This document shows positions 11,190 to 60,152 of a stretch of 64,000 bases of DNA, piece by piece. A program made the translations under genes and the position numbers. The stretch's first letter is position 1; each line of letters begins with the position of its first letter. This DNA is from Octopus vulgaris (taxonomy: Eukaryota): the NCBI GenBank assembly GCA_951406725.2, contig OX597838.1, positions 39,308,001 through 39,372,000 of the forward strand, written 5' to 3'. The notes beneath the pieces were generated by a model that was not told where the DNA came from, did no database searches, and saw only the letters and a list, made by a program, of their open reading frames with translations.

Positions 11190-11550
11190 TTCTTATGAGA
11201 TTATTTTATAAATCCGCCTTCAGCTTCGACGATTTCTTTAATGCACGAACACAATCGTTCACTTGCCTGCCTAAAATGGTTATTCATTTCGAGCATCATC
11301 CGGGTATTGGTGAAATTCAGCCAAGCTGTGGAAATTGAGTCGATTGGTTTCGATCTCAACAATACTCCAATCCTAGTAGTCCATTGAATTAAAACCTCAT
11401 GATTCTTGGAGTTTTGGTGTTCTATGATCGTAATTATTATCTCACAATCATTCTTGAGCTACGTTATCTTTATAAAGATACTGTCTTGGCCTTCAGTTGT
11501 GTACTTCATTCATCCAGGCCTTAAGAACCGTATTAATTCCGAGACGCTGT
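11190..11550 (-). mobile_element. Tc1/mariner C-terminal remnant
   Basis: Translates FNSMDY*DWSIVE and EIVEAEGGFIK*. Confidence 0.5.
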
Positions 11551-11630
11551 GGAAATAGGTGACGTGACATGACAGGACTTTTGTTACTAAGTTCGTCATA
11601 GCTGCTTGGAAACTTGTGTGCATCCCTCTG

Positions 11631-12080
11631 TTAAAAGTGGACGTTGTGTTAGGACACAAAATACTGCGAGAGTTATCATGAGAGAAACTCTCATATTGAT
11701 TTTCGGTGCGTAAAATCACTCTTCTTTATATCGCGAGCGAGGAGCTAAATCACTCGCCCTCGACACCGCTAAGGCTACCAGATCGCGGGATTTTGGCAAT
11801 CCCTGGATTTGTGGATGGTAGACGCTCCAACCCTGGAGATTACAGCGATATCTCTGCAAACGATATACATAGAATCACGGTATCTAACCAGGCATTGGCG
11901 TTGAGAATAGCCAGTGGGCTTATTAAGAAATAATTACTATTTTGAAAAGCAGTATTAATATCGAAAGGTAATATTTATTCCTACTTAAAAGTGGATGTTG
12001 TTTCAGAACACAAAATACTACGAAAGTCACAATAATTACCATGAGACAACCTTTCATATGGGCTTTTGATGAGTATATAA
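11631..12080 (+). ncRNA. Candidate structured-RNA tandem repeat, subtype 1 (one 354-nt unit plus a partial unit)
   Basis: TTAAAAGTGGA(C/T)GTTG recurs at 11631 and 11985. Hairpins at 11644-11659, 11678-11694, 11737-11757, 11787-11803, 11825-11838 and 11893-11916 are largely maintained in diverged copies. Confidence 0.45.
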
Positions 12081-13180
12081 ATGTGTGTGTGTATGTGTGT
12101 GTGCGTGTGTGTGTGCGTGTTGTGAAAACCACAAGTCTTGTGAAATACAGCTACTCAGGGAAAAATGACCAACAAAGATATTAGTGGTAACGATGTGTCA
12201 GGTGGCTTGTTTTTAAATTTTTGAATTTGGCTAAGATGTATTTCTTAAAATGCAGATATAACGAATAAAATTTGTTCCGGAAATTACGTAAACTTTGGAG
12301 GACCTTAAGTTCTTTCAGAGATATAGTTTCACGAGAGATCATATAGAAGAGATTTGTTTAAATAATTAATATAGGGTCTGGTTTTCAAAATGATTTTCCA
12401 TTTGATGTCGTAGCTGGTTCCCTCGTCTTTAAGATTCCAGATTTATAACAAAGCCGTTTAGATTTAAATGAGCCTTATCACTCATAATCAGGTTGTGAAT
12501 AAAATCACCTTCTTGCTTTGCTAATTGTTGTTTCTGGGCAGCATACACAAATCGCATCTGATAATCTGCTGGGTTTAGTTCCTGAACCAGCTGCACTTTA
12601 TAAATTTAGTATCCTTTGACTCCCCTGTGGTGAACTTCGCGATACACCAAGCTACTGGGAACCGCCATTGGGCTGGTGGTGAAAGCTTTTCTTCTATGCT
12701 CAACCGTACACGTTGAATGTTGTTCTGAGACTTCCCTGAGCCCAGCCTTTCCGTTCGTGGTAATCCTGTTACAGCCCTCTATGGTTTAAACCGTCAGAAT
12801 AAACTGAGAATCGCTTCTTCTTTGATGGTCAATGTCAGAATCCAAAATGGCGAATGTATATCCTTTGGGTTAACACAATTGATTGTTGATATTCTTGATA
12901 AAATTCGATTATTTTTACTCGTTGCTTTATCGTAACTTTCTCTACGATTATTTTCCAAGAAGTACAGGTCAATAATCTGAAACAAAATAACTGAAAAATC
13001 AATTGTAAATGAGTTATTATATTTAAAATGGACTTGTTCCTTTTGGACTACGCTGTGTGTGTGTGGGTGTTTGTGTATGCATGTGTGCGCGCGTGAGCCT
13101 GTGTCTGTCTCTTTGTGTCTTTGTCTGTGTCTGTTCCTCTGTGTGTGTCTGCGTCTGTGTGTGTGTCTATGTGTCTGTGT

Positions 13181-15269: not shown

Positions 15270-17975
15270 AGAAATATGTTTTGAAAAAAATATAAAATCC
15301 ACGTGGAAATGTAAGGGTAAAAAATGAAGAATCAACGAAAATGCATATTATAGATATAAAAAGGCTATTTATGACAGGTAGTGACAAATATATACATTTA
15401 AAGTATTATTCGTCGAAAAGGTCATTATTATTGATGATTATAAGAAGTTAATAATAGTAATAATAATAATGTAAGAGACTGAAACGAACCAATTGGTTTT
15501 CGTGTTAGCTATTCATCGTTTGAACAACACCGGTTAGTAAACGGTGTCAGGTCTAATAGTTCCTGAGAAAAGTGCTTATTTGTAAGGGAGGTAAGTAGTT
15601 CTGGATTATATGTATAAGGGAGGTAAGTAGTTCAGGAATTAGAAATGTGAGTGATGTAGAAAGTGTATAGGGTTTAGTGGTTTAAATTGAAGAGTTAGTG
15701 GTGTTCTGTATTGAGTTGTGTGTTCACATTCAGTTGGGAGAGAAATTTGTTGATGAAAAATGACTCTTTATTCAACCTTTGTTGCATTGTGGTGTTCTGT
15801 GAGCATTGGTAAAAGGGAAATATTTGGAAATTGGGATTAAGATTCCTGGCACATCTTTCTATGTGTTCACTCACCTTTAACTGTCTGTATTGTGGGTGGC
15901 GGATTTGCTCTCTGTGAATGGTGATTCTTTGACGGAGCGAAATTCCTGTTTGTCCAATATAGAGTTTACCGTATCCTATGCATGTCATGACATAGATTAC
16001 ATTTACCGAGGCGCAGGTGAAATTTGATTTGATCTTAAATACTTCTCCTTGTTTGAAATGGAATTCTGAACCCTCCAGAAGGTGGGGGCATGTTCCACAG
16101 TTAGAACGTCCACATTTTGTCACTTTTGGCTCAGTAGTTAGTGGGTAAAGTCTAGAGCTGGTTAATATTCTTTTCAGTGACTTTGGTTGCTTTTTGCTTT
16201 TTATAATTTTATATGAGCTTAAAATTCCGTTCATTGTTTTGTCTGCTGTGAGGATGGGAAGGTTTGGGGTGATGCTGTTGAAGGCTTCGTTGTTTCTGGG
16301 GTTATGTGTGGAGATGTACGGGAGAATTTTTAAGTCTTATTTAGTATTACGGCTAGTTTTCCTTAATCTTTGTATATCTATTCACTTAGCTCTTTTGATG
16401 CCTTCATTTACTAATGAGATTGGGTAGTGTCTTTTAGTTAGTGTAGATCTAATTTCAAGGAGTCTATGTTCACGAGTGTATGTATCGGAAACTATGGTGC
16501 AGATTCTTTTTGCTAGGTTAAAGGGTATGTTGATTTTTATGTGTTTGGGGTGGCAAGAGTTAAATAATAGGTATTGTTTAGAGTCTGTGGGTTTATAAAA
16601 GATGTCTGTTTCTATGTGGTTGTTAACTATTCTAATTAAGATGTCTAGAAAAGGTAGTTGCTTACTGTTGTGTTCCATAGTGAATTGAATATTGCTGTGT
16701 ATGTTGTTGAGCATTCTTTTAAAATCAAGGAGTTGATCCATGCTATCTTGCCAAAGTATGAAGCAATCATCTAAATATCTCTTCCAGTTCTCCTTTAAGT
16801 AGTAATTGAAAGAGGCGCCATATTTTTCTAGTGATGATTGGTATAACTTAAGTTCGTGGTAACCCATTACGAGGTTTGCAATAACTGGAGCGGCTCTGGT
16901 CCCCGTTGCAATTCCGCATTTCTGTCGATAGTAATTAGTATCGAACAAGAAATGATTGTTCCCCAGGACGAATTTAAGTGCTTCAATTATAAAATTGTGG
17001 TTAATTCGTCCTGGGATCTCTTCTGGGTGCCTTTCTAGCCTAAATGTGATTGCTTCTATACCATAGTCGTGTGGGATATTAGTGTATAGATTCACCACAT
17101 CGAAAGACACCAGTAGAGTTCCGTCCTTTACTGTCTTCGGGAGGTGGTTCAGCATGTCTAGGTCATCCCCGATGTAGCTTTTCACATATTTTAAAAGAGG
17201 TTTGAGTAGTATGTCAAGAAAGTTACTCAAACGGTGGGTTTCGCAGGAAGGGTCAGCTATGATGGGTCTGAGTTTGAGGTCAGTAGGTGGAGGGACATTA
17301 ATGCATAGGCTTGTAGAGGACTTTGTCAATTTCACGTGTTGTAAGACCCTTTCCATGAGTTTGGAGTAGGGAGGATAAATTTTTCAGTGTCTTCTGTGGG
17401 TTGTAATATGTTAGTTTTTCATAGTAAGCATTATTTTCCAACATGGAAAGTATTAAATTTTTGTAGTACTCTGTATCCATCAATACTACCGTACTTCCTT
17501 TGTCAGCTTCTTTAATAGTGAGGTTTATGTCATTCTTTTAGCTCGACAAAGTCTTTCCATTCGTTTAAATTAAGGTTGGATTTGATATGTTGTTTTGGAA
17601 TGGTATTGTAAGGAAAACAAGTGAAGTGATCACAGAAAACATCAAGTGCTTTATTTCTACCTTTTGTAGGATGGTTCTCACTTTTGGTTTTCACTATTGA
17701 GTCATCTTCACTGGTATAGTTGTAAAGAACTTCTGTGAGGCGTAATTTTCGGCAGAAGTCCAAAGTATTGTCCTTAATTTCATTTGGGTTCGGTATATTT
17801 TAGACCTCTTGCTAGGATTTTTATTTGTGTAGAACTCAGGATTTTCTTTGACAGGTTGATTATTTTCGGTTGGACTTGTTTATTTGTTTCCATTTCACAT
17901 ATCTGTTTCTCTGGTTTGCGTCTAAAAATGGTTGTAGTACATGGATTGTCGTGGAGGGTCTGTATTTTGGTTGGT
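15270..17975 (-). mobile_element. Penelope-like retroelement, frameshifted (RT plus Cys linker plus GIY-YIG)
   Basis: RPIIA, SFDVVNLYTNIP, YLDDCF, KCGRSNCGTC, VIYVMTC..YIGQT. Confidence 0.93.
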
Positions 17976-20082: not shown

Positions 20083-22030
20083 CGTAAACCAACGAATACA
20101 ATTACTTATTTTGCATTGCCTTTGGCTATATTTACAGCGTGTGTCGAAATATTTCTTATTTATTTCTAAAGTGCACTGTAATAAAAAACAAACTTACGCA
20201 AAACAGGAATCACTTCTCTGTGTGATTATTGTTGCGTAGCTCATGTCAGCCTATCCAAAATGTGGGTCCAAGAAGTTTTAAATTTGGCAGAGGATAACCC
20301 TTTTCAGTTCTAAACATCAGTTTAAGCCATTTTCGTCTCTAGAATAAGCAGAGGGAAGAGAGAAAAATGCACTCCATGACTGAATTTGCATGTTATTTAT
20401 CGACCCCCATTATAATAAAAAGGGAATGGTTGAGCTTGGCAGGATTTGACCTGAAAGTGGAGGGAACAGAAACGAATTTTGTGAATTATTCAACTCGATG
20501 CTTTATCAATTCTGTCGGTCCTCTACCTTATGGAAGACGTATCCGCTGTCGAAAATAAGTGCGTAAGCCAGACATTTATACAAGTCTCAAATTTTGATTC
20601 GAAAGCAGCTATTTTGGTGGGTGGGGGCCAGTCGATTACATCCAACCCCAGTATCCAACTGGTACTTATTTTATCGACTTCGAAAAGATGAAAGGCTAAG
20701 TTGACCCCGGTGGAATTTGAACTGAGAACATAAAGAGCTGTGAAATACTGCTAGACATTATGTCTGGCGGTGCTGACAATTCTGTCAGGTAACGGGATTA
20801 AGGTACATTTATACTAAAATATGATTTAAGCTTTAAATAAATATATAATTTGAGCACTGATTGAAGAATAATAGCTTTATTTTACTCAAAATTAGTCATT
20901 AGAACCATCTCTGCTAGGGACATACATAGAATCACAGTGTCGGAAATAGCCAGTAGGCTTTTAAGATCATTATTAGCGACAGAAGCAGTATGAATAGCAA
21001 AGAAGGAATATTGATCCTTATTTAAAAGTGGATGTTGTGTTAAAACAAAAATTACTGCGATAGTTACAATGAGAGAACTCTGATATTGGCTTTTAGTGTA
21101 TAAAAGCACTCTTCTTTTTATTGCGAGCGGGGAGATAACTCACCTGCCATCACCACCACCGAAACTTCAAAGATAACGGGATTTCGGTCTTCACTGACTT
21201 TGTTAATTATAGAAGCTCCACTGCTGGAGTCAGCAGCGATATCTCTGCTAGTGATACTCATAGAATCATAGTGCGTAAACCGGCACTATAGTTACACACA
21301 CACAAACAAACAAACACGCACACACACACAAACATATTCACACAAACACACACACACATACACACACACACGCACACACACACACTAACATAAATTCATA
21401 TACAAACACACAGAGAACGGGATTTCGGACTTCACTGACTTTGTTAATTATAGAAGCTCCACTGCTGGAGTCAGCAGCGATATCTCTGCTAGTGATACTC
21501 ATAGAATCATAGTGCGTAAACAGGCACTATACTTACACATATACACATATATACACTCACACACATACACACGCATACACACACACATACAAACACACAT
21601 TCATTCCCAAACATACTCATATTTAATTCACAATATACGCATGTATATAATTCGGTGGTAATCACAAAAAATCCCCTTTAGTGGACCGGACCACAAACTA
21701 CATAGGAAACCAATACGTAGGAGTGTAATGTAGCGTCTTATGCAGTTGTAATGCAGTCAACCTAATGAAGGAGGATGATTTCAGGAAGAGTATGTAGACT
21801 CTAAAGAAAGTCAGGAGGTACGAGATGAATATATTTATCGCACCACTTGATATCCATAGGATAACATTCATCTCGCAGTCAACATCATGTAGAAATGATT
21901 TATTTTAGTGTATAATATATTACTTTACATGCCTGCAATCGTTTGGATGCTATAAAAGAACTATTGTACATTTTATAAACAAACCAATGCAGATATAGAA
22001 GTCTAGCTCAACAGATCAACAAATTATAAG
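20083..22030. repeat. Segment duplicated in inverted orientation at about 49535-51350
   Basis: Paired ORFs 20367+/50835- and 20882-/50266+; sequence matches as reverse complement. Confidence 0.9.
20905..21535 (+). ncRNA. Candidate structured-RNA tandem repeat, subtype 2 (plus local duplication 21416-21535)
   Basis: Diverged homologue of the 11631 unit (TTAAAAGTGGATG at 21022; CTCCA-ctgc-TGGAG; GCGATATCTCTGC; CATAGAATCA twice). Confidence 0.42.
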
Positions 22031-25134: not shown

Positions 25135-41267
<16,133 letters not shown>

Positions 41268-42257: not shown

Positions 42258-42707
42258 TTAAAAGTGGACGTTGTGTTAGGACACAAAATACTGCGAGAGT
42301 TATCATGAGAGAAATTCTCATATTGATTTTCGGTGCGTAAATTCACTCTTCTTTATAACGCGAGCGAGGAGTTAAATCACTCGCCCTCGACACCGCTAAG
42401 ACTACCAGATCGCGGGATTTTGGCTATCCCTGGTTTTGTGGATGGTAGACGCTCCTACCCTGGAGATTACAGCGATATCTCTGCAAACGATATACATAGA
42501 ATCACAGTACCTAACCAGGCATTGGCGTTGAGAATAGCCAGTGGGCTTATTAAGAATTAATTACTATTTTGAAAAGCAGTATTAATATCGAAAGGTAATA
42601 TTTATTCCTACTTAAAAGTGGATGTTGTTTCAGAACACAAAATACTACGAAAGTCACAATAATTACCATAAGACAACCTTTCATATGGGCTTTTGATGAG
42701 TATATAA
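42258..42707 (+). ncRNA. Candidate structured-RNA tandem repeat, subtype 1, duplicate
   Basis: Near-identical to 11631-12080; unit starts at 42258 and 42612 (period 354). Confidence 0.45.
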
Positions 42708-45780: not shown

Positions 45781-48027
45781 CTAGAGTATTTTTAGAAAAA
45801 ATAGCTCAGAATTGCAGAGAAGACAGAATTTCTTGCCTTTGTCATATGGTATCGAAATTGAGAGAATCAACCATTCTAAATGAAATTGTTCATTGTCGTC
45901 TTTTAAATCCCAAATCAGTTTGATGAGACTGGTACTATTCCGTTTATTTCTATCCCTAAATGTTGAGTAATTGATAGAAATTCTTTTAGATAACTCTAAC
46001 GATGTGCTTCCAATGTAAAATCGTACTTTATTACGAGTACTGATTAACAACTGGTATATATAATTTTTAACCTTAGAGTTACTTGACATAAATTTAATTC
46101 TATTGGAATTGACCTCAGATACAATGACCTTGTTATTAATATTTCTAGAGGGTTGGATAGTATTAGCTAAATTAATGTTAGTATTAGTAAATGTATTAAT
46201 ATTTAACAGTTTGTTATTATGAGAAGAGATAATTTGCAAGAGATTTTTTGTGTTTGAAAAACCTATCCTGACCTTATGTGAATTGATTATAGAGTAATAT
46301 CTAGAATTGTTTGGAAAATTCCTAGCAATGGCTTGACGAAACAGCAGTGGGAGATTAGATTTAATTTGTCTCCCGTAAGGAAATATTAACCAAATACTTT
46401 TACTAGTATTCATAGCGTAATTACTTTTGAAGATGTTATATTTACTTTTAGATCGATAATAGGGGATTAAATAAGGGTTATCTGCCTTCATTCGCTTTGT
46501 ATCGGTGCGTAAGTTATGTTTGTTATCAATAGTTCTTTTACGACTAGAAATCTTATCTACATTATTGAATTTACAATTAGACTGAGCAGAATCTATGTAG
46601 AAAATTTTCTCTGTATAACCTGCTTTGATTAAGGCAGAGTTATAGAATTCAGCGTTATTATTGAAAATATCAACATTAGCAGATAATTTAGATAATCTAA
46701 ATGAACTATTCTTAACTAAGTTCTTAGTAATCGCTCCAGGATGATTACTAAATTTGCTAATGTACTTAAGATTGGTCAACGGTTTACGATATGGGAGGTA
46801 AGAGTCACTGTGTAAATTAAGCGTAATATATAAAAAGTTGGCCTTCGTCATATCGTCATCAAAAACGATTTTTAAGCCCATTCTACTGAAAAAATTAACT
46901 AAACTATTCTTAACTTTTTGTACCTTTTGGTTGGAAACATTTTGTAGGTAAAGTAAACAATCATCACGATATAGACCTTCATAAATGTTAGGGAACTCTT
47001 CAGCCATTTCAAAAAGAATATATATACAGACCAAATCAGCTATCTGTGCTGAATCAGAACTTTCCATTGGTATATCGAAACTATCTGGTGTGTCTTTACG
47101 GACCCACAACTTATCATCAAATTTAATAATAGATCTTCTGGCTGCCAGCACAACATTAATTTCTTCTCGGGTGAGACCAGCTTTGTTATGAGCAAGCCAA
47201 AGTGCCTTATTAAGTACTATTGGATTGATAGATGAATAAAAATTGGAAATATCAAACTGGATAAACTTAGTACTCACCTTATTGTTAATAGAACTAAACC
47301 AGTCAACTAATTCAAACGAATTAGTCCATAAACTAAGTTTTAATGTTTTGATTAAATTAGGAATATATATATCTAGTATATTTTTACTAAGGATACCGAT
47401 GTCAGAGCTAGAAGGGCATATAAGCCTTAATGATGGGTTAGTAAAAAAAATTGGTTTGTGATCCTTCAAAATGAACCGAGGTTGCTTAGGAACAAGTGGT
47501 TCTGTCTTCATTTGTAGGTTATATTTCTCCATCATTTTCATAGCCTCAATGTTGGCTTTCTTAAGTATTCTTTTATCAGCAATTTTATACTTTTTCTGAA
47601 TTTCTTTTTTAAGTAATTCCAAATAATAGTCTTTATAAAATTTGTACAGCTTTCCAGTCTTATCAGATTGAACCAACATAGTATCCATAGAATTGATTTC
47701 TTTGGTGATGTTGCGAAGATACCTCAGATGTTTATTTCTTAGTGGTAATCGTTGAAATTTTATATTTCTCACAATGGACCAGAGATCATCTTCAAATTGC
47801 TTCAATCTTGGGTTAGGCGGCGGACTATTTTTAGATTTAAATAACTTGTTGAACTCAGATGTTTTATCATTAGTGTGTTGTTGAGTGTCATTTTTGTCAA
47901 AGAAAAAGGTAAGCCATCTTATTCGGTTGATGAATGAATTTATCTTATTGACAAGTTGTTTAAGGAAAACATTCTTAGGTGGAATAGGAATGTCCTTAAG
48001 AGATGCGTTAATATTCAATAACTCCAT
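45781..48027 (-). CDS. PLE reverse transcriptase / GIY-YIG endonuclease (C-terminus cut by SINE)
   Basis: QFDISNFYSSI, LYRDDCL, YIYQL..FYIGST, CLLCNSE. Confidence 0.85.
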   Translation of the reverse strand: MELLNINASLKDIPIPPKNVFLKQLVNKINSFINRIRWLTFFFDKNDTQQHTNDKTSEFNKLFKSKNSPPPNPRLKQFEDDLWSIVRNIKFQRLPLRNKHLRYLRNITKEINSMDTMLVQSDKTGKLYKFYKDYYLELLKKEIQKKYKIADKRILKKANIEAMKMMEKYNLQMKTEPLVPKQPRFILKDHKPIFFTNPSLRLICPSSSDIGILSKNILDIYIPNLIKTLKLSLWTNSFELVDWFSSINNKVSTKFIQFDISNFYSSINPIVLNKALWLAHNKAGLTREEINVVLAARRSIIKFDDKLWVRKDTPDSFDIPMESSDSAQIADLVCIYILFEMAEEFPNIYEGLYRDDCLLYLQNVSNQKVQKVKNSLVNFFSRMGLKIVFDDDMTKANFLYITLNLHSDSYLPYRKPLTNLKYISKFSNHPGAITKNLVKNSSFRLSKLSANVDIFNNNAEFYNSALIKAGYTEKIFYIDSAQSNCKFNNVDKISSRKRTIDNKHNLRTDTKRMKADNPYLIPYYRSKSKYNIFKSNYAMNTSKSIWLIFPYGRQIKSNLPLLFRQAIARNFPNNSRYYSIINSHKVRIGFSNTKNLLQIISSHNNKLLNINTFTNTNINLANTIQPSRNINNKVIVSEVNSNRIKFMSSNSKVKNYIYQLLISTRNKVRFYIGSTSLELSKRISINYSTFRDRNKRNSTSLIKLIWDLKDDNEQFHLEWLILSISIPYDKGKKFCLLCNSELFFLKIL

Positions 48028-50084: not shown

Positions 50085-50495
50085 GTATAGTGCCTGTTTA
50101 CGCACTATGATTCTATGAGTATCACTAGCAGAGATATCGCTGCTGACTCCAGCAGTGGAGCTTCTATAATTAACAAAGTCAGTGAAGACCGAAATCCCGT
50201 TATCTGGAAGTTTCGGTGGTGGTGATGGCAGGTGAGTTATCTCCCCGCTCGCAATATAAAGAAGAGTGCTTTTATACACTAAAAGCCAATATCAGAGTTC
50301 TCTCATGGTAACTATCGCAGTAATTTTTGTTTTAACACAACATCCACTTTTAAATAAGGATCAATATTCCTTCTTTGCTATTCATACTGCTTCTGTCGCT
50401 AATAATGATCTTAAAAGCCTACTGGCTATTTCCGACACCAGTGCTTGTTTAGACACTGTGATTCTATGTATGTCCCTAGCAGAGATGGTTCTAAT
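50085..50495 (-). ncRNA. Candidate structured-RNA tandem repeat, subtype 2, inverted duplicate
   Basis: Reverse complement of 20905-21290; internal period about 351 nt (GATTCTATG near 50109 and 50460). Confidence 0.42.
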
Positions 50496-52205: not shown

Positions 52206-52259
52206 AATGTGTGTGTGTTTTTGTATTTCTGTTAAAGAAAAAGAGGGGAACGGAGACAG

Positions 52260-52462
52260 AAAAAGAAGAAAAAAAGTGTTTTGCTGGACAGGATGTTTAC
52301 TCCAAGGAGGGGGGGTCTAAGATCTTGGAGAAAAAAGAACTTAATTTTTGACCATTTTATAGTGTTATTGAGTGTATGGTCAAAACTTAAATTCTTTTTT
52401 CCCCAAGATCTTAGTTCCTTGGAGTAAACATCCTGTCCAACAGAACAATTTTTTCTTCTTTT
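52260..52462. repeat. Imperfect inverted repeat / fold-back
   Basis: GGACAGGATGTTTACTCCAAGGA..CTAAGATCTTGG versus CCAAGATCTTAG..TCCTTGGAGTAAACATCCTGTCC. Confidence 0.75.
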
Positions 52463-52559
52463 TCTCTCTCCCTTCCCCAGCAGCTATGACGAACTTAGTA
52501 ACAATAGTCCTGTCATGTCACGTCTCGTGACCTATTTACACTTTGAGCATGATCCGGTA

Positions 52560-54198: not shown

Positions 54199-56312
<2,114 letters not shown>

Positions 56313-57210: not shown

Positions 57211-60152
57211 TAAAAACGGTAAGATAACAAAAGAAAGCGACCTCAATATTATGTAAATAGAGGAAATTTATCTATAAATTAATATGTTACATTTACTCAA
57301 TAGTCAAGATAAAACTCTGAGTTTCAGATGCCGAAGTGGAAATCCACAACACAATCTCTTCGGTTATCTGGCCATCTGAAAAACGCTATGAAAAAATACC
57401 GTTATATAAAGGGAAATTACTGTATTATAATTCTGCTCACGAACCCACGTGCGTACTTATACGTCACTATGAAAACGTACACATCTTCACTCGCATTTTT
57501 CGCCAAATATATACGCATATATATACAAACTCATACACAAACACATGCACACCGTAAAAGTTCATACATACGTCTATATACGCACAGGCACAAGAAAAAC
57601 AATGGTTAAAGATGACAGAAAAAAACATAAGGAAGTATACAAAGCATAAAAACCACGTTCATATACGGACATGCCCCTATGCACTCATACACACACACGC
57701 CCATATATGTACATACCCGCACATATTTATATACGCATACATACACACGCATATAAAAAAAATGAATATAGATATGTCCCCCCCACAAAAAAAAATGGAA
57801 AAATACTATGTATAAACGTCTATATATATATGTGCATTCTTATGCCCGCACACACGCACACATCTAAACCTGCCCACTCATACATATTCACACACGTGTA
57901 CAAATGAATCTATATACATGTCTATATAGGCACAGGAAAAATGCAGGATAGAAAAGTATAGAAAAAATTATGTGTGAAAATATAAAAATATATGAAATAA
58001 TAAAAGGTATAATGAGATAAAAAAACTTTTTGGGACATAATATAGAAAGCAAGTTCTATCTGTTTTCTTTAGGGGACCAAAAACGTAACAAAAATTTAGT
58101 CACATGTGGGCATAATCCGAAAAGTTCTGTCCTTGAGTTTAGACATGTAGTAGGGTCTAAGCTGCTTTTCCAGATAAGCCATCTCTCCATGTCGCATAGA
58201 CCGCACCTTCCGCTGCCGTTGGTGTAGGGCTTACATTTGGCCAAAATCTTCCAATGGATGTTATAATCGACACCTTTATATTTTAAAGACCAAATATGAT
58301 TAGATAATTTTGTCGCTTTTCTTTTGTTCCAGTGCCTAAAACTCAAGGTGTGGTTATTGAACCTGGCCTTGAAATTACCCTCTGTAAGGCCCACGTATTT
58401 CTTCGTCGAAACGGTGTCTTTAGTGGTTATAGAGTCCACGGTAGCTTCATAGATGATGGTCTCGGACATGCAAGCTCCATTTAGCGGGCACAATTTTTTA
58501 TTCCTGCATGAACAGCTGTTTTCTTGTGGTTTTTGAGTGTTATGTGTGATTATATTTTAAAATTGGTAGTAGAACTAAAACTAATTTTTAAATTGTGTTT
58601 ATTGAAGAGTTTCCTATAAGTATGGTTAACTGGAAAATGTCTATCTATCAGTGTTAAGAAATATTTACCTATATTGAAGGTCACCTCGGGTGAGTAAGGG
58701 GGTGTAAACCAGATGATCTTCCTATTTCTATTTTTCCTCTTCTTTACTGTTGGGCTAGTAACAGGTACATATTTTATTTTTTCGCTCAAACCACTATCTT
58801 TTAAAGCCTTATTATAAACTGGGACAACGCTATTAAAAATGTCCTTATCGGAGGAGAGGCTAGAAATTCTCTTATTAATATTTTAAACTAAATTTTTGAA
58901 TACTATAGGGGGATGGCATGAACCTACATTAATATAACTAAGTCTATCATTGGGCTTCCTATAAGGCTTATAAATATTCTTATTTAGATCTAAGGAAACG
59001 TCTAGGAAATTGACAACCGTCAGGTTAGTATCTATAGTTATACTAAGTCCGAAGTATTTCATTAATTGGATAATATCCTCCCTAAAACGATCCTGTGCTG
59101 GTCCATTTGTATTAGCGGTTAAAGCGAGGGCATCATCTTTGCAGATGGGGAAATATACGTCAGGAAATGTCTTACCTAAAGTATCTAGGTGAAAAAATCC
59201 AATAAGATCGCAAATGCCTGCTCCATCATATGACTCCATGCTCACATCGAAAGCACCCTCTGTGTCGGTATTTTTGACCCACTTTGCGTTCTCACTGAAA
59301 AGTAAGGTCTTTCTAGCATGGAAGATTATGTCCTTATCATTTGTACTGATTTCTATGAAATCACTAGCGAAGAAGAGGGCTTTATCTAGCAGTTCTTTAG
59401 AGATAGAGGCATAAAAATCAACAATATCGAATTGTGTAAACCTCGATTTTTTCTTATTCTTAATGGCTTTAAACCAGTCTACGACTTCTATACTATTGGA
59501 CCATTGTACCAGCCTAGTAGCGGTCTTAATTTTCGCATTTATTTTATCTAAAATTTCTTTACTAATAATCCCAAGTTCTGACTTAGCTGGGTTGATAAGC
59601 CTACATTTAGGGTTGGAAAGGAAGTTCTCTTTGTGGTCTTTAATTGTATTAAAGGCCTCTTTTTGGGGAAGGACTTCTATTTTTTTTATCTAATTTAAGT
59701 TTAGCGGCGATAATGCTAGCTTCTTTATTAATTTCATTATATGTCTGTGGCCTAGCCTTAGTGTAATTATTAATGATGCTGTTGTGTAAGAGTTGTGTAT
59801 ATATGCTGTTATGTATCAGGTATAAGTTCTTGGTTTTATCCGAAAAAGTGCTTTTTTCTTGGAGCTTTTTATATGTTTTATATCTTTTTTTCAATTTATG
59901 TTGGAAATTGTTAAAAGACTTACGAAATTTTATTTTATTCATAATTTTCAGTAGGTCCGCTTCAAAATCTTCCAAGCCTTTAATCTTGGGAGGGATTTTT
60001 TTGATTTTATACGATAGAAAGTATTTTCCATGGTGTCCACTTCTGTATTAAAAAAGAAAGCTTTCCATCTCATGCGCATAATTAGATCAGTAATTTTGTC
60101 TAAAAGTTTCTTTGAATAAAGTTCCCTTGATGGGATTGGTATATTTTTCATA
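57205..60152 (-). mobile_element. Degenerate Penelope-like element
   Basis: MKNIPIP..RMRWKAFF, KDDAL, IIWFTPPYS, CPLNGAC..IIYEA..YVGLTE; hammerhead variant (CCGAAGA..GAAACUC-A-GAGUU) about 57305-57368. Confidence 0.9.

Follow-up and report, generated by a model that had tools for sequence, protein, structure and literature searches.

The repeat at 11631..12077 of the window, by which we mean the whole 64,000-nt stretch of Octopus vulgaris DNA analysed here, is in our reading, to which we give a probability of about 0.87, a decayed copy of a dispersed non-coding family whose units of about 350 nt have, on the minus strand, the motif of a type I hammerhead; most likely this was a non-LTR retrozyme, now extinct, that the enzymes of Penelope-like retrotransposons copied. 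An earlier note, made from the letters of the window, had described the repeat as non-coding, structured, head-to-tail and of retrozyme size, and in this it was right. The full unit spans 11631-11984 and a partial second unit lies 354 nt on with 72.5% identity over 91 columns, just as the tandem unit had been claimed; the related copies placed at 42258, 21022 and about 50.1-50.5 kb on the minus strand were also recovered (at 42258, 21022 and minus 50353). The copies in the window and their parts are as follows.

11631..12077, minus strand, read from 12077 to 11631: focal insertion, about 1.25 units of the putative retrozyme family, subfamily A, by profile search
11985..12077, minus strand: incomplete unit at the 5' end, joined head-to-tail to the full unit with 72.5% identity, starting beside a (CA)n tract
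11773..11823, minus strand: decayed type I hammerhead of the focal copy
11821-11816 with 11780-11775, minus strand: helix I of the focal hammerhead
11815-11809, 11808-11795 and 11790-11783, minus strand: core, helix II and helix III of the focal hammerhead, respectively
between 11781 and 11780, minus strand: predicted cut of the focal hammerhead
12082..12124, no strand: (TG)n microsatellite bordering the focal insertion on its 5' side
20907..21297, minus strand: second insertion ("subtype 2" of the earlier note), about 1.1 units
near 21163-21215, minus strand: decayed hammerhead of the second insertion, core position 5 altered
21417..21528, minus strand: local duplicate of part of the second insertion
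42258..42704, minus strand: duplicate of the focal insertion, with 96.7% identity over 521 nt
42400-42450, minus strand: decayed hammerhead of the 42.3-kb duplicate
50089..50486, plus strand: duplicate of the second insertion, within a 1.2-kb block 96% alike to 20097-21293
50162-50212, plus strand: decayed hammerhead of the 50-kb duplicate

To speak of an array here is too much, as each site in the window holds only 1.1-1.25 units. Nor do the copies fall into two subtypes. In fact the 42.3-kb copy has the same 5' truncation point as the focal insertion and 70 nt of flank in common with it, about 560 nt of flank to the left and about 800 nt to the right of the 11.6-kb copy recur at a locus of another contig, and a 1.2-kb block with 96% identity is common to the copies at 21 and 50 kb. 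Judging from these alignments, the four copies are two old insertions, each duplicated later along with its flanks, and with flanks and blocks shared in this way the differences between the supposed subtypes are mostly to be put down to separate decay. The figure given for these differences, about 49 of 177 aligned nt, is close to our count of 47 in the first 177 nt and 55 in 209, while the stated lack of indels has to be amended by a single 1-nt gap; between the copies at 11631 and 50.1 kb, 32 of the 55 are transitions. The 47 are spread evenly over codon positions (18/16/13), as had been observed. Across 24 sampled rows the identity to the family majority is 75-87%, the lowest rows taking in flank outside the family. 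Several segmental duplications are seen in this region, such as the 2.6-kb one of 1-2650 and 34735-37322 with about 94% identity. At 52250-52476 there is a long near-perfect inverted repeat with arms of about 100 nt, possibly a MITE, and it borders on a fragment of the repeat that is also found beside the focal insertion, at 11549-11612. A PIF1-like helicase fragment at 39455-39904 (minus strand) is presumably a Helitron remnant.

In the better-kept copies, the strand corresponding to the minus strand of the window begins with helix I, which is followed by a core of seven letters, helix II closed by a loop of six, GAAA, helix III in palindromic form, UC and helix I again, where helix I is the canonical one of 6 bp with an internal loop and helix II has 4 bp. 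A strict type I descriptor matched 12 of 52 subfamily-A copies on this strand, compared with 0 of 52 on the opposite strand and 0 of 5200 dinucleotide shuffles. Among 53 copies, counted after five flank-sharing duplicate loci were dropped, the core letters are kept as follows: U4 in 50, G5 in 42, A6 in 51, A9 in 48, G12 in 44, A13 and A14 in 50 each, A15.1 in 49 and U16.1 in 42. By the descriptor counts the hammerhead layout of the family is far beyond chance. The Rfam models agree with this below their cut-off: in eight short loci, six of them picked for good cores and two being window copies, Hammerhead_HH9 was the top match over its full length in three (E 0.017, 0.023 and 0.47), although all matches stayed under the gathering score (at most 21.4 bits vs a cut-off of 52). 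The Rfam comparison proposed in the earlier note thus gave nothing at gathering score, either for the window or for 20 family loci, and a hammerhead below it for those three loci, none of them a window copy; at E 5 no ribozyme is found among the matches listed (150 of 194), and the focal copy has no Rfam ribozyme match.

The hammerhead is degraded in all four window copies. The focal copy has lost core positions 4, 5 and 12 together with three of the four helix II pairs, and in the 21-kb and 50-kb copies core position 5 has changed, from which we consider these hammerheads very likely dead. It is because of such losses of catalytic letters that no hammerhead core was seen when only the window was read, and the suggestion built on this, a possibly new ribozyme, has to be given up, since a type I core is present in the family, on the minus strand. 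A relaxed core scan of the window gave a single match, at 29569-29625 (plus strand), which is an intact-looking minimal hammerhead of the Penelope type with a canonical core and no clear helix III. Moreover, a broken Penelope-type element lies at 15695-17356 (minus strand), where RT and GIY-YIG Pfam matches are found in adjacent ORFs; similar-looking ORFs at 26905-28140, 45781-48027, 54472-55620 and 58056-59239 have no Pfam match.

The pairing of the motif can be followed across subfamilies. In an alignment of 22 copies of subfamilies A, B and C, hand-picked for well-kept copies, 88% of the hammerhead cells are paired and 11 of the 19 pairs change on both sides; the covariation score is 0.404 vs 0.247 in shuffled alignments, a control which is inflated by the kinship among copies, and 0.06-0.15 in slid ones, where 26-44% are paired. 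The compensatory changes that had been proposed therefore do exist in the hammerhead between subfamilies, but not between the two so-called subtypes of the window. Core pair 3-8 is U-A in 28 of 42 copies of A and C-G in 26 of 30 copies of B and 24 of 27 of C, and the inner helix II pairs change along with it. In a set of 53 A copies, positions 3 and 8 are U-A in 35, C-A in 9 and C-G in 3, while in subfamily D (L184-L213) they are U-A in 30, U-G in 9 and C-A in 5 of 46 units. The U-G units of D (9/46) and the C-A copies of A (9/53) are possibly intermediates of a swap of the core pair; the U-G and C-A units seen in D could also be partly CpG decay. For subfamily A, the idea that U3-A8 itself is an artefact of CpG decay was rejected, as positions 7-8 are CA in 40, CG in 2 and TG in 1 of 53 copies, in contrast to the CpG in helix III of A, which shows CG 23, TG 13 and CA 8. 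The rejection is less clear for D, with CA in 32, TG in 8 and CG in 2 of 46. U3-A8 is described as a natural variant with activity reported in vitro in PMC3088659 and PMC4209133, the former also documenting its natural covariation.

Outside the hammerhead the picture is weaker. The unit folds better than its shuffles, as had been expected (z -2.8 on the plus and -3.9 on the minus strand), and single A copies have a mean z of -2.5 on the non-hammerhead strand vs -1.8 on the hammerhead strand (10 copies, 8 shuffles each); that the former folds at least equally well may reflect the near-symmetry of the stems. RNAalifold on whole units gave almost no consensus structure, and covariation could not be shown outside the hammerhead. 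All the stem strings quoted for subtype 1 are present in the window. Their persistence was followed in 42 A copies, the stem columns of subfamily B being unreliable at 50% identity: four of the stems (a, c, f and g) largely persist, a having a mismatch at its centre and f two possible partners, but b, d and e do not. The inner pair of b is paired in 5 of 39, while d and e, which are unpaired in most copies, are chance pairings on top of the hammerhead of the opposite strand. The unit probably folded into several hairpins, as predicted for retrozyme circles.

Searches of the octopus's own 2.8-Gb genome gave 1199-1903 first-look candidates per window-group query, the best 40 of which were scored each time, and the first searches yielded at least 55 non-redundant loci on about 20 contigs from these best 40. 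The sister subfamilies B and C were reached by a search with the Rfam hammerhead model and the fourth, D, by a divergent-copy query. Mean identity is 0.71-0.79 within subfamilies and 0.48-0.62 between A, B and C; the head-to-tail period is mostly 343-356 nt with up to about three units per locus (L204, L207), and the GC content is 38-41%. Multimers outside the window are decayed among the best 40 candidates per search, and in the same set no young copy was seen, the best matches outside flank-sharing duplicates being 73-81% alike to the query. Without a young copy, activity is unreadable from the genome. An exact 35-letter hammerhead pattern has one match in the genome, an old copy, and a metagenome scan by pattern gave two matches unrelated to the family. 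The focal locus with its flank also occurs in DNA contigs from three runs that carry three different organism labels, while contigs of four presumed-RNA runs hold short pieces, mostly less than 90% alike and running into unrelated sequence, and one 194-nt piece of the focal copy was found in one run; neither kind of piece is informative on monomers or circles. Other hammerhead repeat families are also present in the genome (L102/L110, L103/L111 and L114/L117), which a profile search shows to be unrelated, L102 and L110 having a far longer helix II region.

The ends of the insertions give a hint of how the family may have spread. As many as 121 of 147 segments have their 3' end 150-225 nt after the predicted cut, vs 42 of 147 for 5' ends, and this stretch is A/T-rich; the clustering of 3' ends has p 5e-55 against a uniform distribution, where the segment ends are those of local alignments of old copies in A/T-rich DNA, taken from the best 40 candidates per search. 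At 10 nt or less from the cut, ends are rare (1 of the 147 3' ends and 3 of the 147 5' ends), and 72 of the 147 segments span more than a single unit. Since the copying of a cleaved linear monomer should leave ends at the cut and nothing beyond unit length, a circular or multimeric template is likely. In 18 of the 97 loci there are inverted pieces, which in every case lie on the 5' side; tail-to-tail pairs were not reported among the segments scored. Judged by eye, the ends of the two arms are separated by 22-38 nt in 8 of the 11 pairs from subfamily A; with a second profile the arm offset is 23-32 nt in 8 of 22 pairs over three subfamilies, with 0 of 6 in B. Such features are known from endonuclease-bearing Penelope-like elements, for which Craig et al. 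2021 (PMC8557442) describe 5' truncation, partial tandems, an inverted 5' arm and an optional 30-40 bp tail; the insertions of the octopus family share the first three and the A/T-rich or microsatellite context, and their arm offset resembles the tail at one end of those elements, whereas the footprint here is on a 350-nt non-coding unit.

In the scenario that we favour, a multimeric transcript would have cut itself once per unit, as the conserved motif suggests, and the monomer would probably have been circularised by a host ligase, by analogy with published work on coral, mussel and axolotl. A Penelope-type endonuclease and reverse transcriptase may then have nicked DNA rich in A and T, with priming in the A/U-rich stretch that follows 150-225 nt downstream from the cut, and copying would have run beyond the cut site and beyond one unit before a random stop, often from both DNA strands, which would give the head-to-head arms in the observed end pattern. 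The copies presumably decayed afterwards, and the two insertions of the window would later have been duplicated with their flanks, their catalytic letters being lost.

The same observations may be read in other ways. The most serious, though unlikely, is that the units come from an autonomous Penelope-like element, as its terminal repeats (pLTRs) in truncated form, and no free retrozyme existed. The ribozyme type, the palindromic helix III, U3-A8 and the shape of the insertions are indeed like those of Penelope-like elements as far as PMC4209133 and PMC8557442 describe them, and Xenopus retrozymes are said to resemble pLTRs in 10.64898/2026.07.22.740005. However, what lies upstream of a unit is another unit and not an ORF, 72 of the 147 segments exceeding one unit and some loci (L204, L207) having about three, and the hammerhead, whose canonical helix I of 6 bp has an internal loop and whose helix II has 4 bp, is not the minimal form. 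Among 97 loci, no RT or GIY-YIG ORF adjoins a unit, and the Penelope-like protein hits in three of them do not abut one either, so that no autonomous partner with shared sequence was found. At the other extreme, it is scarcely credible that the family is no more than a dispersed satellite or a repeat of the SINE type, its hairpins due to chance and without any role as a ribozyme: the decay of the window copies and the weak consensus folding of whole units would suit it, but not a hammerhead layout so far beyond chance whose pairs change in step across subfamilies.

A circle with functions in both polarities, viroid-like or zeta-virus-like, in which one strand would carry a hammerhead and the opposite one a permuted twister, perhaps along with an endless reading frame, is also very improbable. 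It would fit the good folding of the plus strand and the 11 of 22 A unit lengths that are multiples of three, yet such multiples make up just 3 of 18 lengths in B and 5 of 15 in C, and none of 80 copies has a stop-free frame on either strand, though the decay of old copies could hide a former frame. As for the twister, by eye the A plus strand at 11632-11720 is like a permuted layout, which partly follows PMC8501958; however, the letter at the place of the catalytic adenine varies among A copies, the motif is not kept in subfamily B, and no twister match was found in 20 loci at gathering score nor in the focal copy at E 10, all of which sets the family apart from twister type P5. A genome search with Twister-P5 had no match, but neither had the control. 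We would therefore give hardly any weight to the thought that subfamily A once carried a second, twister-like ribozyme on the opposite strand, as a paired-ribozyme circular RNA which copied itself from RNA to RNA and whose fossils were pasted by Penelope-type enzymes. Zeta viruses, as characterised in 10.64898/2026.09.16.752053, have lengths that are multiples of three, stop-free frames on both strands and paired ribozymes, from which the octopus family differs in its 0 of 80 stop-free copies and in the few B and C units of such length. A coding repeat of 118 codons was likewise rejected, there being no stop-free frame. The STC-like genes mentioned in the earlier note could not be found either: over the window units there are three short ORFs of 32, 44 and 68 aa with no Pfam family match, and a signal-peptide exon of a secreted-protein family was rejected as the ORFs are short, vary in frame from copy to copy and lack a Pfam match.

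Returning to the retrozyme reading, the likeness to retrozymes suggested before is borne out at the family level when measured against PMC7229834 and 10.64898/2026.07.22.740005, where one type I hammerhead per unit with a conserved core and three helices, head-to-tail units within about 150-450 bp, GC below 45%, no ORF, no LTRs and dispersed copies are found. Metazoan non-LTR retrozymes, as presented in Cervera and de la Pena 2020 (PMC7229834), have units of 350-390 bp in mussel and 330/350 bp in axolotl, and share with the octopus family the head-to-tail units of about 350 nt, the single type I hammerhead in each, the low GC and the lack of ORF and LTRs; unlike them, the copies seen here are all old and mostly of 1-2 units, with a U3-A8 core in subfamily A. 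The hammerheads of Penelope-like elements, among them Schistosoma Cercyon with U3-A8, resemble it in the account given by PMC4209133 in being type I, in the palindromic helix III, in G10.1-C11.1 and in U3-A8, while they differ from the canonical helix I with internal loop, the absence of an extra base between 9 and 10.1 and the absence of an attached ORF seen here. Searches of the literature on octopus hammerhead and twister ribozymes and on cephalopod retrozymes found no such family, although the supplements of PMC7229834, Repbase or Dfam may list it. By its sequence features, the repeat most likely belongs to a known kind, the animal non-LTR retrozymes, and is no new ribozyme.

What the finding adds is an old, probably extinct retrozyme lineage of multiple subfamilies, and its importance is modest. 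The insertion ends lend support to a proposal, as yet unproven, by which retrozyme RNA in circular or multimeric form is copied by Penelope-like enzymes that start at fixed priming sites. Moreover, the sister subfamilies provide a natural series for the swap of a core pair, which is C-G in B and C and U-A in A and D.
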